This document shows, in pieces, positions 3,001-51,000 of a stretch of DNA of 64,000 bases; the first letter of the stretch is position 1; the number at the start of each line of letters is the position of its first letter. A program made the position numbers and the translations under genes. The DNA is from Candidatus Omnitrophota bacterium. Its GTDB lineage: Bacteria; Omnitrophota; Gorgyraeia; Duberdicusellales; 4484-171. The stretch spans positions 64,001 through 128,000 of the forward strand of contig JAIPGM010000001.1 in NCBI GenBank assembly GCA_021735655.1. The letters are read 5' to 3'. The notes beneath the pieces were generated by a model. It had not been told where the DNA came from. It was given only the letters and a program-made list of their open reading frames with translations, and did not search any database.

Positions 3001-6000
3001 ATAGGCACAAAACTAATTGTTCCGGGATTACGCGATACGCGCAATCTTTCTAGATCGTGGTTTATGGAAGAGCAGGGTGGAAAGCAAGTATTGCTTACGC
3101 CAATGAATCTTACAGCCAAGATGGTCGCTGAATCAGCTCGTCTAGTTAAAGATCTCTCGATCATGATGCCGCTTTTGCCGCATGTTCAGAATTATCTTTA
3201 TGAAAATAGTAGTGGTTGGAATTTTACTGATACGCTTCTTGGTGAGATGTTTGATATCCAGAAAATGCCGTCTGAAGTTTCCCGAGATGTCGTTGCTGCC
3301 ATTGAGGCCCTAAAAAAAGATCCATCTAAGGTAGATACCTTTATAAAGGAAAACATTAAAGATTCAGCTACCCGTGAAGCCTTAAGAAATAAGATCGATT
3401 TAATTAATAAGTCTTCTTTAGCTAATAAAAATCGCGAGATAAGAGAGTTAGTGATATCTACTTATACTGAAGATATGTTAACTGCTAGAAAAATTTCTAG
3501 TCATGGTATCGCCCGGCAGGCAATGGAATTAGGCCTTGATCCTAATGCTCCAAATACTTCGCTTTGGGATTTGCAAAAAAATATTGGAGTTGAACAGTTA
3601 AGAAATCAGCTTGATATTACAACTGGCCCAGAGCGTGAGCACATCTTGCAACAGATTAAAAACTTTGAACAAGCAACACCGTTTGAGTACAAGCTTAATG
3701 TGATGTCAAATTATTCATGGCAAGGTGCAATAACTGCTATGTACTTTGGTCCGACCATGCATTTTATAAGACCGATTTTAAACCCCGGTCTTAGTAAAAT
3801 GCCAGGCTTAGGTGAGTTTCAGTCGTTAGTTCAAGATTTCTTTGGTGATGGAGCTTTTATTGGCGATACGATGAGGAAAGTTGGTATAGACAGTATACCA
3901 TATATCGGAAAGCCAGTTGTTAACGCTGTTGGTAGGGTTATTGAATTCGGCGTTGAAGAAAATTTACGAGAAGTTGTCACTAATCTAGCATTTAGACAGG
4001 CCTTTGTTCAGATCGGCGGGTTTTTAGCTCCTCCGAGAAGAATGGATTATGCTTCTAATGCTGACTATTTTAGGGCTCAATCAGTTTATCAGCAGGCAAT
4101 GGAATGGATTGAGGAATCATTTGACGGTAAGGGGGTTTCGTTTGCTAGTGTCGCGGCTAATCTTAATTTAAATATTCCCACTCAAGCTCTTCAATCGCCA
4201 GGTAGTCCGACTAGTTCAGCTGTTTACGGTAGTGGAACCAGCCCTTTAAATAACGGCCGTGAATTAGCCACAGAGTTACTTACAGCTGAGGCAGATTATA
4301 CTGGTTATCATGATCCAAGTACAGTTGATATACAAACTGGTCCGGGAAGTTTTGCAACTTTGGCTGATCTTAGCTTGCCTTCATCAGGAACTCCAGCTGG
4401 CACTTCAGACTCAGCAAAAATAGTTTTAGTTCGTGGATTAACTAGGCAAACTGGTCAAGCTGACTTTGTTAATCCGGTTACCGGCGAAATTGGCATTGAT
4501 GCTTCCTTAGGAAAATATGATGCTTCTACTGGAAGGATAGCTCTTACCGATCAAGGTGGAGTAGCCGCACAACATGCTGCGGCTGAGTTTAGGGCGCACA
4601 GGGAAAACGCATCTAGAAAGGGTGTTTCATTAGAGGATTATAATACTTGGTTAGATAGTAATCCAACTGTGGCAAGAACAATCCATGATGGGGTTGTTTC
4701 TGATGGAGCCGTAGCACCGAGAAGTAATTTTGGTCTTTTTGCAACGCCGGTAGCTGATATTGTTGTTGAGGTTGGCGATAGACCAATAAAGATGAAGGGA
4801 ATAAAAGCTCCAGCTACAGCCGCAATTAATGGGATTTGGTCACTAAGCAGTGACAAGGAAAGAGTCACCACTTTAGATGGTTTAATTGGTTTTGTCAAGA
4901 GAGCGGTTATTCGAGATAAGGCTGCTGAGGTAAAGCTTAACACTGGCAGTGGTCAAATAGTCTTGACTGCTGACAATTTAATGGAATTAGAGATTTTAAG
5001 GGAACGTCTGGTTAATGTTCAAGGCAGTGTTAATACGGATGAGTTAATCAATAGAGCCCGTTATTCACAAGATAACGCGCGCCGTCTGGCTGCTCAACAG
5101 TCTTTAATTGAGACCCTTAACAATGATCAGCTATCAACACTTATTTCTGGAGAAGCAGTCGGTCAGTTAAAAATTGATTTTCTCCAGGAAGGTTTAACTC
5201 GAGCTATGGCTGGAAGGCCGAGTCAGCTAAGAAGAAAGATAGTTGGTGATGCTTTTGATAGATTAGGTAGTCGCTATAGAGATTTACCGCATGGGCTATG
5301 GTCTTTTTATCATTCTTTCCGATCAGCAATGAATCGGACTGAGTTCTATATGCATAAGGCTCAATTTAGATCTGACAGTGCACGTATAGATTTAGTTCAA
5401 AGGATTAGTGATTATCAAGATAGTCAATTCGGCCAAGGCGAGAGCAGCAGCCAAACTACGATTGCTTTGCAAGGTGTCTTACCTTATTATAGCCGTTATT
5501 TAAGGCGCGATGCTAATCGTCGCTTCTGGGCCCAGAAAGCTAACTCTGGTTTAGATTCTTATGGTCGCCTGTCACCATTACGATTGTTGCAATTAGCTGC
5601 CTGGAATCGGGAACTTAAATTAGCTGAATTCTACGTGGATGGATTTAAGACTGAGTTTGATGCTGAAGGTAAAATTGTAGTTAAGCCGCTAGACCCAACC
5701 AAAGATATAGCTTATGCTTTGGTCGGACGTAATGGAAGAGATTTTGATACTCCAATGCGCTGGGTTGAATGGCGGGCTGGTGATAAGTTGCAAGATTTCA
5801 TTTTCAGGTATGACCTTAAGGCTGATAAATTGCTTGAGTGGGCTTTTTATAAGGCAACGGATAATAGTGGATTGAAAACTTTAAGAAAGGCTTTAGGTCA
5901 TAGTGATGACCCTTATCCACCAATAGTTATGGAAATGAGCCAGCATTGGGGTGATCTTGATGATGACCCTGTTATTGCCCGTAAAAATAAACAAATTAAA

Positions 6001-9000: not shown

Positions 9001-12000
9001 TTAGGTTCAGCTAATGTTGTTCAGGCAGCTGAAGCAGGTCAGGCAAGTGATAGCGAAGTAAATGTGGGGTTAGTTTTAGCAGTTGTTTTTGCGGTAGCAG
9101 CAGTTTTAGCAGGAATCAGTTTTAGAATTTATGCCGGACAGAGGATCAAAGATATTGAATCTAAAACTGGAATCCAAGATAGCGCAAGAATTACTAGAAT
9201 CAGAGCAATAATTGAAGAGTTAAAACAAGAAGCTCTCAGGTTAGCTCAAGTCGCTCGAGAAAATGCGATGATAAAGGTTCTAATAGCACCTCAGGGTGAC
9301 CCATATAGAAGACTTAGTGCTTCTGAAATAGAAAAATTAAGAGCTAACCAGAAACCAGATGTAGAGTTGAGATTGTGGGATGTAACTGTGAGCGGAACCG
9401 GAACCGTAAGAATAATTTATGGTTTTAGCGAGGATAGAGTTGATTTCATAGTCATTGCTACCGATGGCGTTGTTCGAAGACAAAGTTTACCACGCGATTA
9501 TGTAGTTGATTCTATTGTAAGCGATAATGTAATTGTCGATTTATATCGTGGGAACCTCAATACTCAGCGAATCATAGAACATAGCATATATCAACGCTTA
9601 ACATCAATTATTGGTAGCTACAACGCAGAATTAGAAGCTGCCCTTGAAGAGGCTGAAGCTAATTCAAAGCAAGCTAAAGAACTATTAGACAGTAACCAAA
9701 GACTATCAGCTCGTGCCATTCGTGCTAGAGCTCGTCAAGCTGCTAGCTTAGCCGGAGCAGCCATTGATAATGCTACAACCTTAATTGAAATCGCCATCTC
9801 ATTGAATGTAGCTAGATTAAGAGCTCGAGCTAAAGTCTTAGAGAGAGAAGCTCAGGCTACTTTAAGACAAGCTGAAAATAAAATACAGAGACCACTTGAT
9901 AATGGTCGAGTGAAAAATGAACCATTAATAGGTTTTAGTCCTAATGGTTTTCATGAAAGTAAACTATTTACAATAATAACGCTAGGTTTGCTTTTATTAG
10001 CCGTAGCAGCAACAGTGACCTATCCGATTTACGCGTTAATGTATTTATCAATACCGCTCGGTGGAACTATCATTCTTTATGCATTGCTCGCTTCTGCGGC
10101 AGTTTTCTTTTCTATTAATTTTATTAACCTTCTTAATAGGATTGAATATTATCTTTTAATCAGTCGAGCACCACAAGCTGAACAAAGTCTAATTAAGGCA
10201 AGGAACTATGTAGAATTTCAGGATGCAGTCTATGCAATAGCTAGAGAGGCTGGAATTAGCATTCCTCATATAGATAGTATAGGCCAAGCTGAGGTTATTA
10301 TTGATAAAGTTACTGCGTCGCTTGAAGCTAGGGATTTAGATAAAGAAAGAGTTCAGGGAATAAGAACAGCTTTAGAGATGTTATTTTTAGGCGATGGTTT
10401 TGCTTTCGATCTTTTCGCTGCAGCCGTCTATATGATATCTTATCGAGACGAAAATAGTAGGTATCCAGCTTGGGTAAGCGGGTATCAAGAGAATGTTGGA
10501 AGAGTATACTATTCCAATCATCGTAAAACTCGTTCTCATTTGGGAAGTTTCTATCCTTGGTTGAGCATTCTACCTCATGAAGCCATGCATGCATTTTTAG
10601 CTAGAGCTAATTTAATTGATGGCGGAGCGATCGGTGAGGAGATCGCTACCAAAGCTGCTCGTATGAGCGAAAACGTAATAATTAGAGAGGTAGTTTCACC
10701 GTCAACCGCTTGGGAATCTTACCTGAGAAATCATTGGGGAGAAGTTCAAGATGGCTATTCTCATGATGGACAAGAGGTAGAGGTATTAAATATCAGTTCA
10801 ATGGCCCTACGAGGAATTGCTTTAATTCGTTTTATTAGAAATTTACTTAGCTTGAGGCTATTTCAATTGAGAGAGCTAGCATCTTTAGCAAGAGTTATAT
10901 TATTAGGTACACCGAATACAACTCTTGGTTTAGCATTTGCGCTTGATAATGGAAAGAAACCTACTCGAGTATGGAAAAGAATGCCTAGTTTGCAGACGGT
11001 TTATGAAACAAGAGGCAACAGAATTGACCGTTTTTTCCGAGCCATAATGTTAGCTGAGACTTTTGAACAAGAGGAAAAGGCTGTTAGACTAGCTAAGAAA
11101 ACCCTTAACTCAGATGATTATCTCAAATTAATGAAAAGAATTATGGCTTCAGTTGAGGTTGTCGCTGATGATGATCAGACTGATAGTAGAGCAACTCCGC
11201 TCGACAATGGCCGTTCAAGAAGGGTAATACCTAGAACCTTATCAGTAATTGTTACCTTAGTTGTTTTAGGTTCAACTAAAACAGCCTTTGCTTCAGGAGC
11301 AGTCGCTGCCGGCTCAGCAACAGTGCCTTTTTGGGGTGTAGTTGCTATGATTGTTATGGGGCTAGCTTTTGCATATATGTTTGGTTTTGTAGTTTATAGT
11401 ATGATTCGTAGTGCCAATATTGGCGGCCGAGATGAAATTAATGAGTTAAGGGATCGGGTTAGAGAGTTAGGTGGAAGCAAAGCTTTAAGAGAAGCCGGAA
11501 CCCCTGAAGAACTTATTGGAAATCTAAACAGTAAAGGCCAGGTTAGTGAAAACGAAATAGAAGGAGAGCTTGATGTAGTAGAAGCTCAAATTAGGAACAT
11601 TGAAGAAAGTAATAGTTCAAGTTGGTCCCAAGATCAGTTAGTTAGCTTAGAGGGCTATAGAGATGAATTAAGAAGAGAACTACTTGAAGCACAAGAACGA
11701 TTAAGAGTTTTAGAAGAAGAAATTGCTGGAGATATTCGTGCTTTTGAAAGAGCTCATGAATTAAATGTACCTTATGCAGCAGATGGTGATTTAGAAGAAG
11801 CTCCTCAGCCAAAAACTGTAGTTGGTAGAACACTCAGATTAGCTGGTCAAATTGCTAAGGTAGCCGTGGTAGCTACATTTGGCATAATGGTTATTGCATC
11901 TCCGGCTACCAGTTTTGCAGGATCTACCTTTGGTCAGTCGGCAGATGGTTTGGCTATGGACCATAATTCAGATATGGATGATCAGGATATAGACATGGAT

Positions 12001-15000
12001 CATTCAATGGGAGCTGTTTTACCGAACACAGAAACATTAACAACTGATGAAGTAGTTTTTGATCCTTCTTCAGTTATTGATTCTTTGTCAGATCAAGCTG
12101 GGGTTGATATAGCCGACACAGCACATTTTAATAGAGAGCTTAGTGGAGCTAAAGATAAGGTTGTTGTGTTAGATTTTTGGGCTACTTGGTGTGGACCTTG
12201 TAGAGACGTGGCTCCACTTTTAGAAGAAATTGCTGAGTCTGATGATAATATTAGGTTATTGAAAATTGACATTGATGACAACCCTGAAATTTTTAATAAA
12301 TTTAAGGTAGTGGATAAGGTAACTGGCAAAGAATTAGTTCCTCAGATACACGTTTTGGTCCATAATCCTAAAAATGGAAATTGGGAACGAAGAGAAGCTT
12401 TGGTAGGTAAAAAGAGTAAAAATCAGATAGAGGCTAGCCTCAGGCCATACTTAGCTGGTTTGGCTAAAGCTGAAACAGAAAGCGATAAGCCGGCCAAGGA
12501 AGCTTCTGAGGGCGAAGCAAGTAGTGGTCATTTTTCAGTTCCTTCAGGGGAAGCGGATTCTAAAGATTTGGCCGAAAGAAGGATTGATGAGATAGAGAAA
12601 AAACTTGTAGCTGAAAAAGAATTAACTGAAAAGAAAAATAAGGCTGATCAAGCTTTTAGCAGCGGTGATTACAGAGAGGCTGCTGAGCTTTATGAGGAAG
12701 TTTTAAATTCGGATTTAGCTAAGGGAGCTTTAGAAGCAATCGCAAAAACAAAGTTGGCTGTTGCTAAGCAGAAAATTGAAGTAGGCGATTCCGATCAGAA
12801 TATTAAAACCACTGCTGTTGGAGATGATAAGGTAGCTCCTGAAAATGAGAGCTTACAGCAAGTTATAGACCAAGGTTTAAAACAAACATCCTCAGCGACT
12901 ATTAACGAAGCGTTAGTTAAGTTAAGAACATATAAGATTGAAGAAGGTAGCTTGTCTGATGAATCTTATAGAGCACTTAAGGCTGAACAAGAAAAAGCTA
13001 TAAGTTTGTTAGTTCAGAGAGTAAAAGCTGTTACTTTTGCTGAGCTCAAAATGCAAAGAGCAATTGAAGCTTCAAATTACAATAAAGCCATGAATGAAAT
13101 CGGTAATGTTTATGTAGAAACATCTACTGATGGTTTAACTAGAGCAATTACCGATGCTATTAATATTCAAGCTCAACACTTAGAGAGTGTATTGACGGCT
13201 ATCCACGTTGCAGACAGGACAGACAAGATTGATTTTGCCTTGAAAGTACTTAAAGAAAGTAAAGGTAAGAATTTACTCCCAGAGGAATTAGAAACAAAAC
13301 TTCAACAAAAAGTAGATAGAGCTATTGGCGAGCTCACAGCAAGAAAAGCCACAGTTGGTCAAGAGACTGATTCAATAAGAGCGCCACCAACTGATAAACC
13401 AGCTACTGAAGAAGCAGAAGCGTCCACAGATTATTCAAAGGTCGGTATTGAGCAATTGACAGAATTGGTAGATGCTAAGATTAAATCTCAACTTTCTCCG
13501 GAAGAGAAAAAAGTTTATGAGGCAAACAAAAACAAGTTAGATTATTTAAAGAAAAATCATCCGGATCTTTTTAAGAAACTTGTTGTTATTGCCGAAGACG
13601 ATATAAAGGCTTGGTTCGAAGCTAACCAAAAACCAATTGTTCAAGCTCAACAAACAGAAATACATAGAGCCGAAAATGTTCTTAAGCAATTCTTAACAAG
13701 ATTTGGCATAGAGTTTAATCAGCCGCGCTATGTAATGGTTTCGGAAAAATTACTTGATGGTCGCTTGGGCGCAGTTTATATTTTATCTCCGGATACAGTT
13801 ATTCTATCTGATAAATTTGAAGTTAAGCAGAAGGTTAGACCGCAAGGAAGGTCTCAGGGACGAAGCCTAGTCGCCCTTGAACCAGCTGGTTCAAATATCG
13901 AAGCTGCTAATCCTAATGAAAATTCTTTAGCTATCGTAGTTATTCATGAGAATCTTCATTTAGTTAAAAATTCTGGTTTAGGCAGCGATCAGATTAACGA
14001 AGGATTTATCCAACATACAACTGATATATTAGCAAAGCAAAATAATTTTAAAGTATCTCACGATCTATATGAACCGCAAAAGGCAGTTATTTATGCCTTA
14101 GAGGCAGAAATAAGTAAAGTTGCCGGAGTAAGCTTAGCTCAAGCTTACGATATGGTAGCCAAAGGATACTTATTAGGAGATACCAGTTTTATTTCAGCAA
14201 ATATTGGAGAAGGCTCCTGGGAAGAAATTGTTAGTATTTCTAATGAATATAGAGATAAAATGGCTTTTGATAATAATCCGTTGCTTTGGGATAAATATGT
14301 ACCTAGAGTAGCTAAAAAATTAGGGGTTAATGACGAAAGCTTAAAAGATCAGCCTAGAGGTTTGAGAGAGAGAGCTAAGCAGTCAGTGGTTGAGTTAGCC
14401 GTTGTTGTTGGAAAAGTTCAAGAGTCTGACAGCGTAGAGCCCGAAGTATCAGACCAAGAGTTACCTAAAGAAGAGGTCAAGAAGGCTGATGGTGATCAAT
14501 CTGTAGATGCTCAGGTTTATTCTTCAGCTCGAGGATTGAATTTAAAGGATAAACAAGAGGGCGAGCAGTTGCAGCAAGCATTCGCAAAAGCAGTTGTTGG
14601 CAATAATGTACCTGAAGAAGCGTTTGTTGTTACTGGCGATACAGATAAGAATTTTTCTGTTAAAGGCAAATTAAGTAATGAAGATGTTGTTAGTTATAGC
14701 ACTAAGAAGATATCTGAGCGCCAAGAGCAGGGATCTCTTACTGCTGGCAGTTTAATAAAGGTAAGAGAGGTTGGTGGAGATAAGAGTTTTCTCTGGCAGA
14801 CACATTTGGGTGATGTTTATGAATTTAAGGCTGACGGGACAGTAAGTAAACTTATTGATGCACGTGATCAAACGGCCTCTAAAATTAAGGTAAATCCAGC
14901 TGAAGAAGGATTGCTCGATACAATAGGCAGGCATGCTTATGAACAGATGCAGAGAGGAATTACGAAGGGATCTATTTTTAACTCTCAAGAGGAACAAATA

Positions 15001-18000
15001 GGTTTTTGGCAGAGAAAGGATAATAAAACTATAGCGGTTATTTATGCAGCTGCTGGCGAAAGAAAAGGTTTCGATGTAAGTTTTACTGAAGAAGTTCGTT
15101 CGGTTGAAGAGCAAAAAGCCAAGAAACTTGCTGATGACCAAGCTGCTGAAAAAGCTGCTGAAGTTAAGAAAGCCGCTGACGCTGAAAAACTTGCTGCTGA
15201 AAAAGCTGCTGAAGCCAAGAAAGTAGCTGATGCTGAAAAACTTGCTGCTGAAAAAGCTGCTGAAGCCAAGAAAGTAGCTGATGCTGAAAAAGCTGCTGAA
15301 GCCAAGAAAGTAGCTGATGCTGAAAAAGCTGCTGAAGCCAAGAAAGTAGCTGATGCTGAAAAACTTGCTGCTGAAAAAGCTGCTGAAGCCAAGAAAGTAG
15401 CTGATGCTGAAAAAGCTGCTGAAGCCAAGAAAGTCGCTGATGCTGAAAAAGCTGCCGAAGCCAAGAAAGTAGCTGATGCTGAAAAACTTGCTGCTGAAAA
15501 AGCTGCTGAAGCCAAGAAAGTAGCTGATGCTGAGAAAGCTGCTGAAGCTAAGAAAGTAGCTGATGCTGAAAAACTTGCTGCTGAAAAAGCTGCTGAAGCC
15601 AAGAAAGTAGCTGATGCTGAAAAAGCTGCTGCTGACAAAAAGATTGCTGATGAAGCTGCTGCTAAGAAATTAGCTGATGAGGCTGCCGCTAAACCAAAAA
15701 CCCAAAATGATGGAGCTAGGGGTATTCGCGCTCCGCCAGCTGCGGAACCAAAGGTTGAAGATCAGCCACTAGCTAAAGCAGAAGAAGCAGTTAGCCAAGC
15801 AATGGAGAAATTGGTTGATGCTGCTAATGCTTCAAATGATGCTGCTAATGCTTATTCCGAAGCTACCAGCAAAGAAGCTGAAGATAAACTTAATAAACTA
15901 GCTGGAGAGTTTGCTCAGTTAGTTTTAGCTAGGGATAATCAAGATGATCAGGTTGTTGACAACGATGGTCAGGTAAAGGCTAAGGAAGCCGAAGTAAGCC
16001 AGAAACAGAAATCAATAGCCGAGCAAGAGGAAAGATTAGAAAAAGCTCTTACTCCTCCAGAAATAAGTGAAGATTGGGAACAGGCTGCCAAGGAGAGGTT
16101 TGGTAAATATAGCCATAATTCTAGGGGTAAATATAATAAAAATAGATTTCATAGCCAGACTCGCACAGTTCCATCAGTAGCTTATGATCAACCAGAAGAA
16201 GATTTTCGTAAAGGAATTCATGAGGTTGTCGGTGAAGGCAAAGAAGCCGCTGCTTATGTTGATACTTCAGTAGTTCATCGTGGTAGTGAAGCGCGTGGTG
16301 CTGGTACAGTAGTTTTGATCTTTGCTGTAGATAAAAATGATTTTAATAAAAGAGTTTTAATATATGTTGATGCCAGCCGTAGACGCGGTATCGATTATAA
16401 TGATCAATATTTTGACTTAGAGGGTAATCAAGTTGAGCCTTTTGGAACAAGTGATAGCTTAATCATTAGGGTTGGCCAAGTTAGTTCCGACAAAGATGGA
16501 GAAATAAGCTTAGATTGGGGTGAACCTTACACTAGTTCTCGTGGCGAAATTAATGATATTTTTGGAAAATATAAACCTGAAGGTGAATTCGTGGCTGGAT
16601 CAGAAGCTCAAGCTAGCGAGCGATCAGCCAAAGATTTACAGGAAGAGTTAGAAAAAGCCGAAGGCGAATTAGAAGCCCTCAAGAAAGCTAAGGAGGAGTT
16701 AACTGGAAAGACAGCTGAAACTGATGAAGAATTAAAAACTAAACAAGCTGAGATTGAAAGATTAAAAGAAAACTTAAAACAAAGACAAGCCAAAGCTGCT
16801 GAACTAAAAAGCGAAACCGCTAAAGCAGTAGATTTGTCTATAGAGGCGCAAGATATAGTTAAAAAAGTTATAGAGGCCAAAGATGCTCCGTTAGAGGATA
16901 GGATTAAAGATCTTGATCAAGCTATTGACTTGGTTGATCAGGTAGCTGAAGTTGCTAGAAGTCTTTCAACCGAAGCGGATAATGAAGTAAAAATAGCCGA
17001 AGGCTTGGTTGATTCAGCTAAGAAAATTGAAGCCTATGCTATTAGTTTAAGAGAAGATGCTGAGAGGAAACTGGCTGAGGTAAAAGCCGCTGAAGAGGAA
17101 GCCCAAAGACAAGCCGAAGAAGCTAAAAAGGCTCAAGAAAAAGCTGAAGCAGAATTAAAGGTCAAAGAAGCTAAAGCCAAACAAGCTTTAGCTGAAGAAG
17201 ATAAGGCTAAGGAAGAATTAACCGAAGCTCAAGGTAAAACTGAGAAAGTTACCACTACCCAGACCGTAAGGGTAAATATTAATAAGCCGCGTTGTTGTTT
17301 AGTAAGATTTTTTATTGATCGTCCAAGATTTGTTCGTGGTTGGGTGCAAGATGGACATTCACGTCGTTGCGGCAGACAAACTTACCGTCAAGGTTTCTAC
17401 CCTGCAGAAATTTACGTAGAAACACTAGTAGCCGTAGATACAACTGATTTAGAGAAAGCCGCAGCTGATAAAGCTGAAGCAAGAAAGACAAGTGATGTGG
17501 AAGTTGAGACTGCTAAAGGAGAGGTTGAAGTTGCTTCAACGGCTACCCAAGAAGCTGAAGCTAATTATAATCAAGCAAAAGCGCAAAGGGAACAAGCTGA
17601 AAAATATTTAGAAAGAGCTAAAGAACTTGAACAGGCAGCTACCCAATGGCGCAAACAAGTAGAAAAAATAGCTCAAAGAGCTCAAGAGTTAGTTGACCGG
17701 GCTCAAGAATTGGAACAAAGAGCAAAAGAAGCAAAAGAGGCCATTGAGGCGTACAAAAAGGCTCTTTCTGAAGAAGAAGGGAGCGGTCAGCCTAAAGGGC
17801 CTGAAGTAGGATCCTTTTATGAGAATCATCCATTTTGGTTTTTCTTCTTACTTTTAACCCCCGGATATCTTTTCGGAATATGGGCTGCTATACGTCGTCG
17901 AAAGGGACTTTCAATCATTCCTGGACGAGGAAAAAAAGTTGTTATAGCTCTTATTGCTGTTGGATTAAGCTTAGCTTTGGCTGATAAGGCTTCTGCTGCA

Positions 18001-21000: not shown

Positions 21001-24000
21001 GTTTTTGCCATCAGATTTGATCCAGGACATATGCCGATCGGCGGAGCCGATAGTATTGTAGTTAACGCTACCCGTCATACCTTGACTGCTGATAAGTACC
21101 ACGGTTATACACTTGAAGAAGTTGCTGCTATGTGGGGTATGGATCCGGAAAGCTTACGCAGCAGCATTGAGCAGTTATTCATTGATGCAGTTACTGCAGT
21201 TGCCTCAACGGTTAATCCACGTGGTGTCAGTCAGGCTTGGATTACGACCGATATGATTATCGATGAAACAACCGGAAAGCCGGTTCTCGTCGAGATGAAT
21301 GGTCGTCGTTCAGCTCAAATCTTTGGTACTGAGAAGCACAGATCAGAACTTGCTCGTTCAGGAAAGGCTCCGGCACGTAGTTATACTGCTACTTTTACTG
21401 ATGCTTTAGCTGCGAAGGCCAAGAAACACCTTAAGGTAAGTATAGAAGAGACTTCGACAGCAGCAGTTCCTTTAGACAACGGAAGTAGTCATAGAGGATT
21501 GTCTATACCGGTATTTTTAGCTGGAATTTTAACTTTGGGTTTAACAAATATTGCTTCGGCTGCCGAAAAAGGGCAAGCAACTAATTCAGATAATCCGCTA
21601 TTTGCTTTATTTTTAATAGTTGCTATACCTTTAGCTGTAGCAGCTGTTGTATTCTTATTTGCTATAGATTGGGATTATTATTTTGGTAAATTAACCAGGC
21701 AATCGCCTCCCAGCGAGAGTGAAACCTCCCCGATAGGGGATGATAGATTAGAAGTTGATGGGGCTAGTTCATCCGTGGCTGCTAGCCCTACTTCTTCTAG
21801 CCATAGGGATGAGCCTCATCGACCTCTTGACAACAACTCTGGAGAAAAACGAAGCAGATTTTCTTTAAGATCTCTTTTCGGTGGAACAGCAGATAGCTCT
21901 TCAGCTTCTAGCTCTGCTAGTAGAACATCTCGAGAAACTCGTGCACCACCAGTTTTAAGAATTGTAATAGCTTGGGCTAGCGCAGGTAACATAGCCGCAT
22001 TAAAGGCTTTAGTCGAGCGTATTAGGCAGGATTTAATTGATGGATTACCTTTTGATGTTGTAATTGAAGAAACAGTAGTCTTAACTAAATTAGATAAATA
22101 TAACCAAAGTCATTTAGGCGCAACCAGAGATTCTAGCGTTGGTCAGTATATCCTTCCTTGGCCAAATTTAAAAACTAAAGCTAACGTACCTACCTTAGTT
22201 ATTACTGATGCTGATTTGGGCGGAACATCTGAAGATGATTCTGGAAAACGATCAACAAATAATAGCCTTATGGGCAGGACCTATGCTTGGCAGAATATAG
22301 CACTGGCCACTACTTGGAAATTCCGCAGTTCAAACCAAGGTCTATCAGATAGAAATAATCGCAATAACATATTACATGAACTCGGCCATCTTTTTGGAAT
22401 AAATCATGAGTGTGGCTGTAAAACCTGTATTATGCATCAAGCTGACTCAACCGAAGAAGTGGCCCGGACGAAACAATTTTGTAAGTCTTGTAATAACGAA
22501 TTAACTAAAATAAATGGTGTTAAATCTAAAAAAACACCACTTGATAACGGTAAACAAACTAGACAATCGTCTCCCAGCGATAGATTAGAAGTTGATGGGG
22601 CTAGCTCATCCGTGGCTGCTAGCCCTACTTCTTCTAAACCTTTGGATAATGGAATATTCGGAGTAATGTTTAGACAAAGAGCCACAAGGATTGATGCTGA
22701 TGGCCATGGTAATTGTTCTGCTGTGACTATTTGGGCTAAGAGAGTTGAGGCTTGGGATGGTTATTTTTCAGAGGGAGAGTCTTTTTATATAGCAGGTATT
22801 GAAGATAGTAGCGATTCATTAGGAGAAAGTACAGATCCTAGGTATGTACGAACTGTAGAAAGATCGGAATCTTCAGATAGGTCTCAAAGAATAGTTAAAG
22901 TAGAAGTCGCTGAGGGTGAATTCACGATTATTGAATTAGAAGACGGATCGGTTATTGCTCATGCCCATATATTTCCAAGACAGGGAACGGCCGATACTGC
23001 TTATTGGCAGCTTATTAGAGTGTTGGATTATTTTACCGACTCCAGAAATGGTTTTGATCAAGATAGCTTAAGAATTGCTTTTGGTTGGGAAGAACGTTTA
23101 GATGGATTTGGTTACGATGCAATTACTTTTAATAGAAGGTTGTTTAGAACTTCGGATTATATGGGGGATGGTCGAGGGCCAGTTTATAGTTCAGCTATGA
23201 CTTGGGATCAACAAGTCGCCGCAGCTGGTCTAGTCGGAGTATTACCTAGTGGTACCGAGCGCATTAATGAGTTAGAGCAGTTGGCCAGAGACAAAGGCTT
23301 TGAAGTTATTTCTTCAAATACCCGTCAATATACGCCAGATCCGGCAGGTTCCGGACAGGGGATGACCGCAACAGATATTAGCGTAACATCTAGTGATTAT
23401 TGGTTGTCGCATAGGCAGGCAGAATTTAGATTTCATTTACGCTTATCAGAAGATAAAAGACCGTTAGATAATGGTAAAGAGAGTGATTTACAGATTCCTC
23501 TTGATAATGGCCCAAAAGGACAGTCTGAATTAGCGGCTAATACCTTAGGCTCTCTAATTGCCGGATTAGTCGCTGCACTTCCAGTTGTTGGGTTGGTGGC
23601 GGGCGCCTTAGCTTTAGTAGTTGTACTTCCGCCGGCAATAACAACAACGACCGCAGTAGTAGTAATCGCAGTAATTGCGGCAGCAGGAATCCTATCGCTT
23701 CCTTTTGCCTATATCTCAGTAATGTTTTTGTCACAAGGCTTAAGAATTGCCATAGCTAATGTTGTTCATGGCGGCATAAGAGGCCCTACTGCTTTAACTG
23801 AACCTATTGCTACTCCGGGCAGTAATGTTTCAAGAAAAATTCCTGAATCAATTATGCCTTTAGCTCTAAGACATTCCATTAACCAGGTTCATGAACAAGC
23901 CCATCGTGATGGAAAAGATGAGCTTGGTGCTTATTCTGCTCAAGCAAAAGATTTCTTGGCTAAAGGAATAAAAGTTTTAATTCATCTTGGATTACTAATC

Positions 24001-39000: not shown

Positions 39001-42000
39001 CAGGCCATTAGGGCTAATTATGCTCATCGGGGAATTCGCAAGGCTGATGGGTCACGCCTAACTAAAGAAGAAAGAGACTCAATAGTTGAGGAGATTTGGA
39101 ATGGAATAATAGAGCATGTTTTTAAGGAGGATAGACTTTTCGAGGAAGAAAGGGATCGATATTCTTACACGGCTGATGGTGGTCCCAATCTCATAAAAGC
39201 ACCGGAAGAGGATGAGGCTTTCGATCGAATTATCTTTTTTGCAACTTCCATGTTCATGCATACACCGCGTATGCCCAAGACCTGGGCAGACTTACGTTCC
39301 CATGCTGTTGTTGATCCGGCTAATGATGAAGATGTCTTTTATAATTTTGAAGGGACAATTACTAGTTTAAATGAAGAAGCAAGGGTAGATCCTGACGATG
39401 ATTCTCTTCCCGGTGTACAGAAAACATTCTTGTGTTATGAGATTTATCTTTATTCTAACCAGTGGTTAAATTTTAAACGCCGAATGCAGGCCTCAGGAAA
39501 ATTCAGGAATACTGAAATTCAGGAGTTACAGAACATATACGATGCAGTTGTTAACGGAGACCTTACTTATAAATTAAAGTTAAAGGATGGAAGAAAGAGG
39601 CTAAGTAAAGCTTTGCAGGACGAAGTTCGTCTTTGGGCCTCTTATAGGTTCCAGCCGCTTATTCGAACTGTTCGGGGAATTGAATATCGTCGAGATGCTT
39701 TAAAGTTGATTGCTAATAGTGTTTATTTCAGGGGGCTTGGCTATACTGATGAGCAAATCAGAGAGGAAGTTAATAAGAAGTTTCGGTTTGTGCTTGGATA
39801 CCAAAGCTATGCTCGACAACAAGCGGATATGGTAAATCCAGAGAAGAAACTTTCAGAACGAATTGCAGCTAGATCTCGCGTAGAAGGCGTCAAAAAAATA
39901 ATGGAACTTTTCCCTGATATATTCGTTGCTAACTTAACTAAAGACGGAATATCAATTTGCATGCAAGGCGGCGAAGAAATAGGCAGCAAAAATGAGAAGG
40001 ATTTCTTTTGGTTAGGTCCTGAAGTTACTCAAGGTAAACCTGAACATCAAAAAGTTCTTTCAATCTGGGTTGATCACGACGGCGGTAATTATGATCATGT
40101 TGATACAGTGGATATGAACCAGGATGATTACTTTGAAGAAGCTTTAAAGCATCCGTTAGTCTTACAGGAGCATAGCCCTGATGTTGCTATTGTTGGTATT
40201 CCTGAGCATATTTTTACTGCTAGCTTTGGTAATGAGGGGAAACTGCTTGCCTTCTCTGATAGCACCTTTGCGAACATGGTTCAGAGGGTAATTGCTATGG
40301 GCGGTACACGTATGCATTATGGTCACCCGGATAGTTTCCGTAAACGATTTGCTAAACGTATGGGCTGGACAGCTTCTTCAAGCAAATTGAACGAAGATAT
40401 CTTTGCTGGATATCGGGCAATACGCTACGGTAAACGAATTAAGTTTATTGAATATCGCCGAGTCGGTAAGGCCCGTGAGGTTAAATTCGCGACTTCAGTA
40501 ATTTTATTTCAGAAATTCGGACGTGGTTCTGGTGAACAAGCTCATGATTTTATGTTATATGAACTTTATGAATGTCAGAACTTTGGTTTCACCAAAGGAA
40601 TGTTTTTCTTGATCAGCTCAATTGGTTTTTATATCAGGAAGCCGGCTGTTGTCTTAGCTGTCCAGGGTTACATCTTTACCTTAATCTTTATGGGTTTAAG
40701 TGGTTTTGTTTCTTTTCCTTTAGAAGCTTTTCTTGGAGTCTTGGGTGTTTTAGCTTCTCAGGGTATTGTGGCTACCGGTTGGTTTGAATTGATATTGCGC
40801 AAGGGCGTAATCCGAGGAACTTCTGATTTAATCGCGATGATGGCTACTGGAAATGTTCCTTTTTATATGGCTCATGTTTATACCAATGCTTTTGGGTTTT
40901 CTGAAGCTCAGGCCGGTATTGCTGGATACTTAGGAAGTGGTCGTGGACCGATGTTACATCATACTCCGATTTTCTATCCTAATTTTAAGTTAAGCTTATA
41001 TGGATTTTTAGAAGGAAAACAGCTTTCGAAAATGATGATTGTTAATATGGTATTTATTATAGCCGGTATAGTTATCTGGCAGAGTCCGCCGATTCTTTGG
41101 TCAGCCTTATTTATCTTGCTTCCTTTTGCGGCTTACTTTTATCCTAATATGTCTAACCCGGGAGCATTACCGATAGGCGTTACTGTCGGTAGATGGCTTG
41201 AGATATATAAATCTGATCTTTCTTTATGGCGCAAAACCATAGCTTCTGATAATCCTCTTTGGGAAGGTAAGAAATTAGACGTAGTGCTTCACGGAGCAAT
41301 ATTATTTCCTGTATTATTAATAGTCGGTGGTTTTATAGCTCTCTTTATTAAGTTACCGGTTACCGTAGGCCGTTGGTTAAATTCTCAATTTTCTGACCGA
41401 GGCCATGTAATCTCGACCTGGGCTATTAATTTGATTGGTGCGGTGTTTGGTGTGGTTTACTTAGCCAATATGTTGGTTGATAAATTACCTCAATTGGGCA
41501 ACATCATTGAAGCTTCACCGATGGCTGCGGCAATAGTTGCGGCTATAGTTATTGCTCGAGTCCTTCTTTACATTGGAAGTTACTTTTATAATTTGATCGC
41601 TGCCCGTTCTCATCAGGGAGTAAGTGAGGCAGTAGCGGCTTTAACTTTAGCTGGAATTATTCTTGCTGGGTTGAAGTGGGGTTTAGCGCTTAAGGCTTTA
41701 GTAGTTGGCTGGTTTAGCTGGTTACCAGCTTTGTTAGCTAGTCCGATTGGCCCTTGGGTTGCTGCAGTCTTATTGGTCCTTGCAGTCGCAGCAATTGTAA
41801 TTATTGCTTTACCGAGACGTATGCAAACTCATCCTACAGTACCGGCTTGGTTTGTTATTATGGGTGGTTTAGGTTTGCTACTAACAACATTAGGGGTACC
41901 AATAGTGATAAATACCCTTACTATATTTGCTGCGATTGCAGTGGGTTCGTTTGTTAATGGAATAGTTGCTCAGGATTTACCAAGAAAGGCTAAAGAGAAG

Positions 42001-45000
42001 AGATTAAAACGTAACCAAGCATTACCTTACCCGGCAACTATGCCAATAACTAATAAATTAGATCGTTCGCTTACTGAAAGTGAAAAAGAAAAAGTTATTT
42101 TAGCTTTTGGCGGAAGCGATGCCTTGGCAACTAATGGTATAGAGTTGAATGATCAAAATCTAGTAATGAGTCCGGCTCTTTCAGCTCCAGCTGAAGTAAG
42201 AGGCGGAGTTCTATATATAAATCCTAATACTTTAAGAGGTCCACCAGAACAGCTAAGAGTGATATTTGAAGGCCATGAATTAGCTCATTTTTTAGGAATG
42301 GATGAAATTCAAGCCAGACAATATACCATCGACTATCTTTTAGCGAATGGTTTACTTGAGAGCCACATTGCTTTCTTAGAGAATAATTCTATTGGTCTTG
42401 TAGCTGATCAGGAATGGTTAGAGGCTTTGAGCCAGAAATCAGTTTCTTTGGATAACGGAATTGAGCTTAAAGTTTATAAGTATAGGCCAGGAGTAAAAGT
42501 TGCTGTTGCTCAGATAGATCCGTCAATTTTACAGCCGCATATTTTAGTTTCCAGTGAGTTGGAAGGTAAGTTGCATTCGGTTGATCGTCGCTCTAACTAT
42601 GTATTGTATTATGATCATGAGACTGGCGAGCGTCTAGATAGCTTTCCTGAATCACGCCTAAAAGTATCTACGGTTACTAGTTTAATTGAAAGATTCCAGG
42701 ATCTTCATCCAGATTCACGAATAGAGATTATTACTGGTAACGAAAACCTTTTCTATAACAAGCCGATAGTTACAGTTATAGCCAATAAAGCTTACCATGC
42801 TGTCGGCGTTGACATAGAGAATCGTAATTATCCTATGCTTGTAATTTGGGCTGACGGTGCAGTAACTATCGAGGAAAGTGTTAGTTTCGAGTTTACTGAT
42901 TTTGATCAAAATGAAGTCAGAGTGTTGATTAATGGGAAAGAAGAAGATATACGCTATGCTACGGTTATCCAGTTAGTTTTAAATAAACAAGGTGTTGTTA
43001 ATCCGGGATCCCAGTTATATTTCTTTGATGATATCAAACATTTATTTGCGATGCCACGATTCAGCTCAGATGACTTTCCAGGAACTTTACCCAAGGGTTT
43101 GATGAGCGGAGCCATATTTTTTATGGCTGATCAACTTCTATCTGAAAATGCCCAGCGTGTAATCGACTATTACGATTCACAAAATCCAAAAACTGTTCAG
43201 GATTTTAATTTAACAAGCACCGTTTTTAGCAGAAGTGCCGATGGCCAAGATCGGGTAAGATTAATCAATATACCAGCAGAGTTATTAGAAGCTAGGTTGT
43301 TTGAAGCCGGATACTTACCTGATGACTATTCTATTGATCAAAGAAGAGGTGTAATTACTATAAAGCTTAGAGAAAATGTTTATCCTTTTCATATTATTGG
43401 AGTTACAAGTGATGGATTGGTGAAGGAGATAGTAGTTAATGGTAAATCTGGTAAGGTTGGTGTCACTGTAAGAGAAGCTGCCACTATTGCTCAAAAAGAG
43501 GGATTAATTAAGGCCGGAATAGTGGATCAAGGGATGACCGTTCGTTTAGATGTGGGTGATTTACGTTTTGGTAATGTTATAGTGGATAAACCTGGGCCTG
43601 AGAGGGCTAGTTCTTTAATCGTTTATACCCATATGCCTCTTGATAATGGTAAACAAAATAGACAATCGCCTCCCAGCGATGATAGATTAGGAGGAAGGGC
43701 TAGCCATAACGTGGCTGTGGCTGGTCCTGCTTCTAAGCCTTTGGATAATGGTCGACCAGGAAAGACCGAATGGAGCGATTTAATGAATCGCGTTGATCGG
43801 GTAAATGGCCTTAGGCAAGATGCACGAATAGCCGTAGTGCTTTATATAGTAGGAGTTGATCAAGAAATCGATGCCGGAACAAGAACAGCTCCTTTAACTG
43901 CCGGAGAACTACTGGTTAATGTTAATGGCGTAGGCCAGATAACTTCACGAAGAATTTTCCGAATAGTCGGTGAATTAAATCTTGCCGGAGTTACTTTAAC
44001 TCCGCTTGATAATGGAAGAGATAATCAATCCTCCCTCAGCGTTTCAGGGACCGACTTAAATCAATTATCGGGTGGATCAAGAACGCGGGCCTTAGAAGGC
44101 TTAAGTAGCTTCTACATAAAAACTAATTCAGTACCGGAGGGTATTCAAGAATTGTTTGATAGTCCTTCCGGATTATTAATAACCGTATCTGATTCTGATG
44201 GTGTGGTTGGCTATGCTTGGATTGATGTCCCAGCTGATGAGGATCAAGTACCAGCCAGGGTAGTCGTTAGTTTAAGTGACCGTCAATCTTTGGCAGTAGC
44301 TGAAAAGCTTAACCATGCAGTAATAAAAACCTTTATCGAAAGAAGTATCCTAAGTGGTAGTAAATTCCTCTTATCAACTCCTAGTGGAGAAAACCTTAAC
44401 TTCGCTCAATGGTTAAATCAACAATCACAATTCATCGCTGGTTTAGCCCAAGCCGGAATAGTTGTTGCTGACATTCAAACTAGTTTTTTAATTGAAGAAG
44501 GTAAACTAATGACTGTGACAGTAGCATCAAGACATCAAGATAAAACCAGAGCAAATAGAAAACCTTTAAATAACGGAAAACAAAATAGACAATCGCCTCC
44601 CAGCGATATAGATGGATCCCTGTTAAGGGATCAGGTAAGAGGAAGGGCTAGTCATGACGTGGCCGTGACTGGTCCTGCTTCTAAACCTTTGGATAATGGT
44701 AAGGATGTCGAAAGAGCAGAACATGTATTAGAACAAATAGGGACTGCTTTGGAGGGAGTTAAGGAATTAGTAAGTGCTCATTCTATTATTGTTGGCTTAT
44801 TAGTTGCCACGGTGCTAGTAGCGGTTAGCATTGGTTTATTCTTAGCCATCTGGCGCATATTCTTTTCAGTAAGTTGGTGGTTGCGACGATTGGAGAAGGT
44901 AGAGGCTAAGATGCAGATTCATGAGTTTTTTGTTCGTTTAGATCGGGATAAAGCTATAAAGCTTGTACAAAATATTTTAGCCAACTTCAGGGCAGAGCTT

Positions 45001-48000: not shown

Positions 48001-51000
48001 ACTCCGGCTTTACAGTTTATCGTTATAACTGATAGCGTCAGTGACTATCAAGGATTTCTAGATTCTGGTAGTCAATTCGTTTGGGAATTAGTAGCAGTTA
48101 ATAAATTCGATTTCACGCAGAACACCCCCCTCGACAACGGCTATCAAAACCCGGCTGATTTAGCTGCCCGAGCTCGCGAGCTTGGTTTGGAAAATCTAGC
48201 TTTAAATATTGAACAAAATGTAGTTACTACCCAAAAAGACTTAACCGTAGTAGCTGATATGTTTGCTATCGGCCAAAGCCATATCTTTGTTGGTTGGGAT
48301 CAACCAGGGATACATGATAATCAGAAGCTTCAGGTGTTGGGTCAGATCCGTCGTCGTAGTAAGCAATACCCAGGAAACCTAAAAGCCTTGGCTGATAACT
48401 CAAGAAAACTACTTGAAGGTTATTATGCTGGTAAAGGAAGATTCGATGACTACGAAGTAGGCACTCCAGAGACAACTGAAATATCAAGTCTAGTAACTAA
48501 AGAAGGAGAATTAATCCCACAAGCGGTAGCTGCTTATCTAGCTCTAGAAGCTGAAGGTTTAAGCTTAGCTAATCAGGTAGTTTGGGCTGAACCTGCCGGT
48601 GGTAGAGGTGAACGTCTCAGCAAAGAACAACCAATACCTTATCGAGGCATTAAACCAGCTCTTCTTATTGCTTTAATCAGTCAAAACTCTCAATTTGCCA
48701 GCTTCCAGACTCGTCAGATTATGGGTTGGCAGAGATTAGCCAATCAATCTCAAGGAGGGCAATTAGACCTAATTAATTCAATCATGAGTTCAGAAGATAA
48801 CCATGAAGATCTACGTCGTCTTTATGAACAACATAATTACTTTGGCGCTAAACCCGATTCAGTTAACCTACATCCACAACCATTAGTCTTTGCTGTAAAC
48901 ACCTACGAAGGTCATTTTGCGGTTGAAGACGATGCTTATCCTTATCGTTTAGTTGAAAAAGCTCATGGCCATGGTGATATCCATATGGTTTTTCATCAAC
49001 AAGAGGTTGCTAAACATGCCCTCGATCGGGGAAGAAAATATATCGTCTTCTATCAAGATACTAACTTACCGATATTCAGAGCTCTTCTACCTACTTTAGC
49101 CATAACTGAAAGAGAAGGTTATGTTTTAAGCTTTATTGCTTCACCGCGTCACCCTGGTTCAGCAGTCGGAGCTTTAGCTAAATTAACGCATAAGCAAACT
49201 GGCGATGAAACCGTAATGAACGTTGAATATATGCTTTTAGGTGATATGGATGTAGCCGCCAAAGGTAGTGAATTTACTCCATTCCCGGGTAACTTAAACG
49301 GTCTAGTCTTAGCTCTTGAGCCTTATCATCAAGCTCTTGAAGAAGCTCATGGCTTAGTACCAGAATTAATCAATCCGAAAGACCCTGAGCGTGATCTAGA
49401 AGCTTTAAAAGTAATCACCTTGCCTGATGGCTCAACAGCTCATAAACTTAAATCAGAAGCTCGAGCTGAAAATAATATGCAGGATATTGCTGAGATTATG
49501 GGTGATAAAGGTCCGGTAAGAGTAATCCAATTTGAAGATGGAACCTGGATCTTCTCAGCTGCCAAAAATAGCCAAGAATTAGGTAGGCAAGCTGTAGCTA
49601 AAGGTATTCCTTCTGAGACCATGGCTTCAGCTGAAGCTGACTTCTATCGTAATAATCGAATTGCTCTTGCAGTTGCCGGTTTACAAGTAAATGTTAATGG
49701 CCACCAAACTCAATCTCAAGGCGTACCCTACCAGGACGGAGCCAAGATCTATCTTGATCCGTTTATGTATCCGACTCTGGCCTCAGTAGTCGAAGCCTTC
49801 CGTAACGGTGGTTCACTCAGCGAAGAATCAACTTTGGTCGTTGAAGGTGAGGGACGAGTAAACTTTAACCACCTAGAACTAAACGGAACTTTAACTATCC
49901 ATGCTGGTGAAGGAGTAACTATACTCGTAGACGGGTCTTTTGAGACTGTTGGTACCTGGCGCTTTAGAAATTTAAGCCTTGAGGAACTAAGTAACCCAGC
50001 TATCGGAGATAACGAACTGATCAGAGGTTATCAGTTAATCAGAGATGGTGGCTTAAGATACAATGTAACCGAACCAGGAAGTTATACCTTAACTCAAGAT
50101 GGTTTAACTAAGAATCAAAGTCCTTTGGATAATGGTAAACAAACTTTAGACAATCAACGGACGTTCAGATCTAATAGAGCATGTATAACACCGACAATTA
50201 TCATTGCGGTGGCAGTGGCTTTATCATTTTTAGTTGGAGTAGAAAGATTTTTTACTTACTTTGCAATAGGAATATCCGCCCTAGCTGTGATTTTTAGTCT
50301 TTACTATTCAATTATTGAATTAATTTCTTTTATGAACAATCAGTCTTTTGATAGTAGAAGGCAAGGAGATAGGCAGGATGACCCTAGACGTGAAGAGCTC
50401 AAACGAAGATTAGAACAATCAGATACTGAGAATGATCGAAAAAGACCGTTAGATAACGGTAGAGAGAAGACCATCGTAGATTTATCCGTAAATTTAAAAC
50501 CCGGCCGTTATCATTACCCGGCCTACGCACCAACTGCTGATCAAGACGAACGTGAACCAGACGATGAAGAACGTGGAAGAATTATCGCACTTTTTGGCGG
50601 AAGAAATGTATTTGATCAAGCAGATTTGATTGTAAGAATTGCTCCGAGATTAGAATGGGTTGCTGAGGTTGACATTCTAAGAGAACAACCCAAGAAGTAT
50701 TTATTAATTAATCCTAATGTTATTCGGGGGCCACCGCAGTATGATTCACAACTTAAAATAATTTTTGAGCAGCATGAAGCATATCATTTAGATGGTGATG
50801 ATGAGAATGTCGCTACAAATAAAACTATTGAGTATTTAGTTTCAACTCCAACCGCAGTTAACCAACCAAGATTATTAATTAGCCATCTTCGTTTCCTTGA
50901 AAATAATTCTTTAGGCATAAGGCCGAAGCGAACATGGCGCAATCGCCTCGTTCGACGCATTGATGTGCAAGATTTACCAAGCACAAGACAGAGAACCGAT

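Follow-up and report, generated by a model that had tools for sequence, protein, structure and literature searches.

The window analysed here is a 64,000-nucleotide (nt) stretch of contig JAIPGM010000001.1 from a Candidatus Omnitrophota bacterium (assembly GCA_021735655.1). It encodes part of a giant protein that contains two copies, A and B, of a domain with an HExxH motif. It is virtually certain that the copies are members of a real homologous domain family, of about 140 residues and previously undescribed. The catalytic signature HExxH-x2-G-x2-E is intact, with an invariant His about 26 residues on, and the family is confined almost only to giant multi-enzyme open reading frames (ORFs) of Omnitrophota-type genomes. 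Overall we favour, with a probability of roughly 0.55, the explanation that the domain is a new mini-zincin family acting as an in-line processing peptidase of these giant ORFs.

The whole window is a single ORF on the + strand in frame 1, with 21,333 codons and zero stops (positions 1-63999), while each remaining frame holds 950-2,750 stops. The window thus comes from the interior of a giant gene. The two copies, their principal motifs and the adjoining junction motifs are as follows, with amino acid (aa) positions given in this frame.

nt 42022..42438 (aa 14008-14146), + strand: copy A, mini-zincin domain, read in frame and supported by family homology
nt 42028..42045, + strand: YPATMP, conserved N-terminal motif of copy A (Y in 56/65, P in 63/65 and A in 62/65 copies), modelled as a short strand
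nt 42187..42246, + strand: beta-hairpin region PAEV...LYINPNTLRGPP of copy A, with near-invariant columns; model strands 59-62 and 65-68, a predicted sheet before the active-site helix
nt 42274..42288, + strand: HELAH of copy A (H14092, E14093, H14096), predicted zinc ligands and general base, within model helix 77-92
nt 42304..42306, + strand: E14102 of copy A, favoured as third zinc ligand; it lies at +6 relative to the second His (Gly at +3) and begins the helix that comes after the active-site helix
nt 42364..42366, + strand: H14122 of copy A, invariant His (65/65), candidate alternative ligand or transition-state stabiliser
nt 42445..42459 (aa 14149-14153), + strand: SLDNG junction motif, 3 residues past copy A
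nt 50443..50460 (aa 16815-16820), + strand: RPLDNG junction motif, 16 residues ahead of copy B
nt 50509..50955 (aa 16837-16985), + strand: copy B, mini-zincin domain, supported by BLASTP, profile and homology to relatives
nt 50773..50805, + strand: HEAYHLDGDDE of copy B, comprising HExxH, Gly at +3 and Glu at +6
nt 50884..50886, + strand: H16962, invariant His of copy B (in LLISH)

BLASTP between the two 700-aa neighbourhoods gave one alignment, of 153 columns at 36% identity (E 3e-20). Rescaled for an all-against-all search of the protein of 21 kaa (thousand amino acids), the E-value is still ~1e-17. Neither a profile of copies A and B nor an iterative hidden Markov model (HMM) search of the window found a third copy. 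An initial annotation, made from the sequence alone, had described two paralogous HExxH segments; the in-frame translation and the alignment agree with it, and the motifs that it listed occur in both translated stretches. The extents that it gave, 42085-42440 and 50560-50930, lie on the real domains but are slightly short. Homology to relatives in BLAST runs from the Tyr of the YPA motif to about 50 residues past HExxH, and the sequence beyond the domain end is not conserved. Both copies do abut an LDNG site, as had been noted, although copy B starts 16 residues after RPLDNG and not 38.

Copies in other genomes are 57-61% identical to copy A, against 37% for copy B, so the pair are old family members and did not arise by a recent duplication within the gene. 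The whole copy-B module has an orthologue in the relative P0015, at 52% identity over ~1,030 residues (aa 16894-17920), where HEAYHLDGDDE and the downstream His are retained.

The distribution of the family was determined by searching 1.84 billion representative proteins exhaustively with HMMER (cut-off E<=1e-3). Only 50 representatives emerged, and almost all were long fragments, 500-7,300 aa in length. Scanning GTDB at one genome per species yielded 26 loci (15 labelled Omnitrophota, nine metagenome-assembled genomes (MAGs) labelled 'Planctomycetales/Planctomycetia' and two labelled 'bacterium'), and a metagenome scan added six, for a total of 32 related loci. In nearly all of them the domain-bearing ORF spans the entire 20-kb locus.

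No family in Pfam, NCBIfam or the PDB sequences claims the domain. For both copies Pfam offered only Peptidase_M8, at E 0.36. When each of 39 members was searched against Pfam at E 10, the result was scattered noise and DUF5700 in three members; NCBIfam gave noise alone for 36 members, and PDB sequence searches with a single sequence and with a profile gave no genuine match. With the two copies as queries a word-indexed protein search came back empty, and with 39 sequences it returned P0019 alone, the long ORF fragments being apparently unreachable there. The two preprints on Omnitrophota giant genes do not mention HExxH or zinc peptidases of this kind. The profile searches thus sustain the initial statement that the domains cannot be placed in a known peptidase family, and they assigned the domains to no non-protease family either.

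One candidate relationship was rejected. A profile search of PDB sequences listed parkin and raised polyubiquitin to E 2e-5, through PPEQLRVIFEGHEL (nt 42241-42282), which resembles PPDQQRLIFAGKQL of ubiquitin. This is a 14-residue coincidence multiplied by repeats, because each ubiquitin unit contributes ~1.5 bits, with an independent E of ~1e3, and the summed score comes from nine repeats. The explanation by a chance match of motifs or by a ubiquitin-like relationship can for practical purposes be dismissed; it is refuted by the paralogy E-value, the family distribution, the conservation across copies and the AlphaFold2 model.

Conservation was counted over 65 distinct (non-identical) copies. 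The HExxH residues are H14092 in 62/65, E14093 in 61/65 and H14096 in 61/65, so that the second His and the Glu, whose loss in homologues would have told against the initial proposal, are conserved. Around the motif the signature reads HELxHLLGxxE, in which Gly stands at +3 and Glu at +6 relative to the second His. In the family the +3 position is Gly or Asn, not Gln, and about one third of copies have a two-residue insertion ahead of the Glu. The downstream Glu (in GMDE or GDDE), suggested at the outset as a third ligand to be checked, is conserved: at E14102 it is Glu in 62/65 copies and Asp in two more. H14122 is present in all 65 copies of this subfamily (subfamily 1), and N14129 in 61/65.

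Relatives also contain a second HExxH subfamily, present four times in L004 and five times in P0044. It bears the signature APPVVxTSDFxKTxGSIAAYN...LYIHL...EGHExFHxEGxNE, and it is homologous to subfamily 1 across the catalytic half (hhalign 97.9%, E 5e-13). It retains HExxH, the Gly and the Glu and is without a His equivalent to H14122. Because it keeps the Glu but not this His, E14102 is favoured, and is most probably the third zinc ligand; on this view H14122 would have an auxiliary role specific to its subfamily.

Several further HExxH sequences were observed. Small-HExxH subfamilies occur in relatives (L004 at aa 793, 2334, 4398 and 5403; P0044, with five; P0005, P0010/L008 and L011; P0004 and L002), and another group of relatives' domains has an unusual HExxxH spacing (YHELISH). 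With further subfamilies in giant ORFs, the superfamily exceeds the 50 representatives found by the subfamily-1 profile. The window itself has other HExxH sites: HEAMH at nt 10576 (aa 3526), HENLH at nt 13945 (aa 4649) and HEQAHRDGKDE at nt 23890 (aa 7964). None of the three gave a significant hhalign match to the family profile; the aa 4649 region is collinear with it, including the terminal 'SH', at a non-significant E of 0.11. These three sites may be very divergent relatives.

AlphaFold with two sequences gave a poor model, with a predicted local distance difference test score (pLDDT) of 61. With 36 family sequences AlphaFold2 gave a pLDDT of 97.4 and a predicted template modelling score (pTM) of 0.91. 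In the N-terminal part of this model are an extended segment, two short helices and three strands (49-51, 59-62, 65-68). The catalytic part consists of the HExxH helix (77-92) and a helix (97-110) that follows it directly and starts at the conserved Glu. The invariant His lies one helix later (114-122), followed by a short strand and a C-terminal helix. The HExxH lies in an alpha-helix and is conserved among homologues, as in the zincin superfamily, and in the model a small sheet stands above the active-site helix in the alpha/beta arrangement of the zincin fold. Foldseek against PDB and BFVD gave no significant match. The structural neighbours of the model, with their scores, are as follows.

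4jix: projannalysin, 7.8 (94/104 residues aligned)
4jiu: proabylysin, 7.7
8exp: BlaR1, 7.5
4qhf: selecase, 7.1
6sar: BepA, 7.1
3c37: M48 peptidase, 6.6

The closest of these are minigluzincins. From the model we conclude that the domain is predicted to fold as a minimal zincin metallopeptidase whose nearest match is the minigluzincin/M48/M56 core, and a zincin fold with a functional metal site is highly probable. The intact HExxH signature, the minigluzincin-like fold and the lack of a sequence-family match together indicate a new zinc-peptidase-like family.

The domain occupies an in-line position between modules of very large proteins in P0001, L001, L027, L004 and the window. The modules of P0001 are, in order, HEAT, HExxH (611-754), LigT/2H (870-953), HExxH (1280-1420), methyltransferase (1550-1680) and HExxH (2148-2289). 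L027 has four copies within 3.5 kaa, and L004 has two copies plus four of subfamily 2 within 6.8 kaa. Such alternation with unrelated enzyme modules in some relatives suggests built-in processing peptidases. The flanking sequence varies among loci, which marks the domain as a shuffled module; there are nonetheless conserved units, 'glucan synthase + HExxH' (P0041) and 'HExxH + PEP-utilising module' (P0015). The enzymes next to the domain are of cytoplasm type (methyltransferase, LigT, PEP-utilising, NUDIX). Membrane association was considered as a general feature and rejected, a hydrophobic helix being found within 60 aa upstream of only 8/75 copies and downstream of only 14/75. Copy A is exceptional, lying 15 aa beyond the last helix of the glucan-synthase membrane bundle.

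A separate observation concerns L001 (aa 2188-2772), where a 40-residue N-terminal domain fragment (YPASMLITNEPDR...FGG...GVTL) precedes a 390-aa module, after which comes a complete HExxH domain. The module is orthologous to window aa 14154-14543, at 52% identity. The arrangement looks like recombination within the domain, or a module inserted into it.

In the mechanism that we propose, zinc would be held by H14092, H14096 and most probably E14102, and E14093 would activate water. H14122 would stabilise the transition state or serve as an alternative ligand. The peptide substrate would bind as an extra strand along the small beta-sheet (PAEV / LYINP). The domain would then work in line as a processing ('releasing') peptidase, cutting the giant precursor close to module junctions and resembling the releasing peptidases of polymorphic toxins and not a dedicated PLDNG enzyme. 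Among the mechanisms considered, an in-line zinc peptidase is the best supported, because of the module architecture, the cytoplasm-type neighbours and the releasing-peptidase precedent; a self-processing role, taken as a claim of its own, is plausible though held at somewhat less than even odds.

LDNG occurs 33 times in the window against 0.38 expected, preceded by Pro in 30 cases and followed by Lys or Arg in 25. The sites span nt 7909-63732 (e.g. 42448, 43639, 50449), with none at aa 8663-14150. LDNG is written in about 30 codon spellings and its flanks are unconserved, so PLDNG is a motif at the peptide level. Its sites fall at module junctions, and the module at aa 16054-16701 has one on either side (aa 16042-16048, 16707-16713). 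In the orthologues of this module in P0047 and L016 (33% identity), SSP[VM] occupies the corresponding places, on both sides in P0047 (aa 978, 1603) and on the C-terminal side in L016 (aa 2768), which suggests that junction motifs are interchangeable and lineage-specific. SSSP/SSP[VIL] is enriched in L012 and L016 (5-8 copies against 0.05 expected), and it occurs in L025, P0022 and P0047 as well. PLDNG itself was found in none of the 32 related loci, so the motif is lineage-specific. LDNG tetrapeptides number only four in the ~115 kaa of the first 26 loci, none of them after Pro, and zero in the other six. One genome scan and one metagenome scan returned no close relative carrying PLDNG. Two window modules that end in PLDNG have orthologues, in L001 and P0016, that continue into the start of an HExxH domain, a junction position that speaks for an in-line peptidase. 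With Asn at P1 and Gly at P1', the motif would suit an asparaginyl endopeptidase or Asn-cyclisation chemistry.

The initial annotation had raised the idea that the domains are the site-specific proteases themselves, cutting the giant protein at PLDNG[KR] in trans in the manner of multi-protease viral polyproteins. The excess of a peptide-level motif at module junctions fits this, as do the sites abutting both copies (3 aa and 16 aa away, with an estimated p~0.004 under random placement), and two copies per 33 sites would suit a trans-acting enzyme. The abutting sites may, however, merely reflect PLDNG as a general mark of domain boundaries, and the window has rival peptidases (one M54-like domain and the three other HExxH sites), with more perhaps elsewhere in the gene. 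Against PLDNG specificity, the domain is present in every one of the 32 related loci while the motif is absent from them, and lineages with SSSP[VIL] at these junctions carry HExxH domains that share ~50% identity with copy A and are conserved at the same positions. The family is thus not tied to PLDNG, the claim of specificity finds no support in co-occurrence, and we consider this explanation quite improbable; a trans role of the window copies at LDNG sites likewise has a low probability. A broader proposal takes the Omnitrophota giant ORFs as true cellular polyproteins with mini-zincins as releasing peptidases at the junctions, which in some lineages including this one would be mostly replaced by PLDNG[KR] or SSSP[VIL] motifs cut in trans, possibly by the few retained copies. 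We put the chances of this proposal at around one in several and offer it as speculation.

The domains might instead be active zinc peptidases against other substrates, such as envelope proteins of prey or host, or partner proteins, as part of a proposed predatory toolkit. The zincin fold and catalytic motif would serve equally here, prey cell-wall degradation has been proposed for giant Omnitrophota proteins (10.1101/2023.11.21.568195), and the position of copy A just past the glucan-synthase helices recalls membrane-anchored M48/M56 peptidases. Most copies, however, lie amid cytoplasm-type enzymes with no membrane segment near, and the family was not found outside giant ORFs, which is unexpected for a general effector peptidase; this alternative seems unlikely. 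A third alternative, a non-catalytic zincin-derived module that is possibly metal-stabilised and has a structural or docking function in organising enzyme modules, strikes us as very improbable. H, E and H are retained at 94-95%, and the Glu at 95%, across copies that are 35-60% identical, which argues for selection on the catalytic site, and the distant subfamily 2 conserves these residues too. The stand-alone domain fragment of L001 speaks for a non-catalytic module.

So does the first of several points that weigh against an in-line processing peptidase. At least three of the 65 copies, two in L012 (FEGYLLYRL) and L019_3479 (HMFFY), are without HExxH while the rest of the domain is kept, including the invariant His, and P0045 and P0043, which diverge more, lack it too; this makes a non-catalytic role possible. 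In most of the related loci there is a single ascertained copy in ~6.8 kaa, so 'one peptidase per module' is true only for some lineages. The L001 and P0016 cases of PLDNG replaced by an HExxH domain are biased, because all relatives were retrieved through that domain. Zinc binding, peptidase activity and cleavage of the host polypeptide are predictions from sequence, model and position, and the third-ligand geometry and the placement of YPATMP are putative. With these points considered, an in-line processing peptidase is still the explanation that we favour. As a related observation, the HExxH-less copies of L012 (aa 3331-3629) and L019 (aa 3476-3632) are tandemly duplicated and are possible pseudo-peptidases.

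By fold the nearest known systems are the minigluzincins (proabylysin 4JIU, projannalysin 4JIX, selecase 4QHF) and the M48/M56 cores (BepA, HtpX, Ste24, BlaR1). No sequence-profile relationship to them was detected in Pfam, NCBIfam or PDB sequences, even at E 10. Minigluzincins are archaeal proteins of ~100 aa and the M48/M56 enzymes are membrane proteases, whereas the present domain is embedded, sometimes repeatedly, in giant ORFs. In minigluzincins the third ligand is reportedly a His on the helix following the active-site helix, according to a 2013 study in the Journal of Biological Chemistry; the likely third ligand here is a Glu only six residues past the second His. The present domain also adds a conserved N-terminal YPAxMP...PDR segment and a C-terminal helix.

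Built-in proteases that free modules by cutting short linkers are familiar from the MARTX cysteine protease domain and from viral polyprotein proteases. Those belong to another catalytic class and fold and their cleavage has been demonstrated experimentally, whereas the present domain is known from sequence and a model. The metzincin consensus is HExxHxxGxxH/D plus a Met-turn. The HExxHxxGxxE spacing here mimics this zinc-binding consensus, as found in metzincins including the M54-like domain of the same ORF (aa 7453-7502), but the mini-zincin has Glu instead of His or Asp, the two-residue insertion before the Glu in about one third of copies, and no conserved downstream Met. Pfam DUF5700, a putative zinc-dependent peptidase, is the sole Pfam family that matches more than two members (3/39, best E 0.0068); these matches are below any curated threshold and most members are unmatched.

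A closer parallel in arrangement is the PVC-metallopeptidase (DUF4157) among the releasing peptidases, which are small three-strand/three-helix zincins with the His pair on helix 2 and the Glu on helix 3; that small HExxH...E releasing peptidases autoprocess very large modular proteins is an established idea (PMC3482391). The mini-zincin is likewise small, of three strands and three helices with the same placement of the His pair and the Glu, and in-line in a very large modular protein that it is predicted to process. The signatures differ, HExxHxxQ...E for the PVC-metallopeptidase and HExxHxxG(x2-4)E here, and PF13699 (DUF4157) had zero matches in 39 members even at E 10. The hosts differ as well: those of releasing peptidases are toxins with C-terminal toxin cassettes, and those here are multi-enzyme metabolic giants.

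Pfam also finds the following features in the window.

aa 4039-4145, + strand: thioredoxin domain
nt 22357-22506 (aa 7453-7502), + strand: M54 archaemetzincin-like peptidase motif (Peptidase_M54), HELGHLFGINHECGCKTCIM, E 2.7e-7
nt 39202-40695 (aa 13068-13565), + strand: FKS-type 1,3-beta-glucan synthase (PF02364), eukaryote-type, E 1.8e-55
aa 15196-15410, + strand: HAD hydrolase
about aa 15625-15737, + strand: methyltransferase
aa 17674-17924, + strand: PEP-utilising domain
aa 19126-19218, + strand: NUDIX
aa 19523-19639, + strand: HATPase_c
aa 20328-20659, + strand: phosphofructokinase

The FKS domain sits within a block of ~18 hydrophobic helices, with copy A directly after, and the pairing is kept in P0041. 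The M54-like domain is a further candidate processing peptidase within the same ORF as copies A and B. A tandem peptide repeat, AEKAAEAKKVAD(AEKL), of ~10 units of 12 or 17 residues, lies at nt ~15150-15650 (aa ~5050-5215) and is probably coiled-coil or low-complexity. The sole opposite-strand ORF of more than 150 aa (15042-15638) overlaps this region, and the repeat has probably given rise to it as an artefact. The domain content of the window fits the 'multi-enzyme metabolic cluster' class of Omnitrophota giant proteins (10.64898/2026.06.07.730766) and also agrees with the domain set given earlier for these proteins (10.1101/2023.11.21.568195).

Omnitrophota giant genes encode the longest known proteins, of 40,000 to more than 140,000 residues. 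Whether these act as one chain or as cut pieces is an open question, with no known cleavage points, and the peptidases pointed to so far are only C39 and S8 domains (10.1101/2023.11.21.568195). The family described here adds to the minigluzincin-like group a compact (~140 aa) zincin family that is new at the sequence level. Its domain boundaries, together with the junction motifs, provide a principled way of dividing giant proteins into modules for structure prediction and expression. The mini-zincin family is a concrete and testable candidate for the processing of giant Omnitrophota proteins, in some of which it alternates with the enzyme modules.

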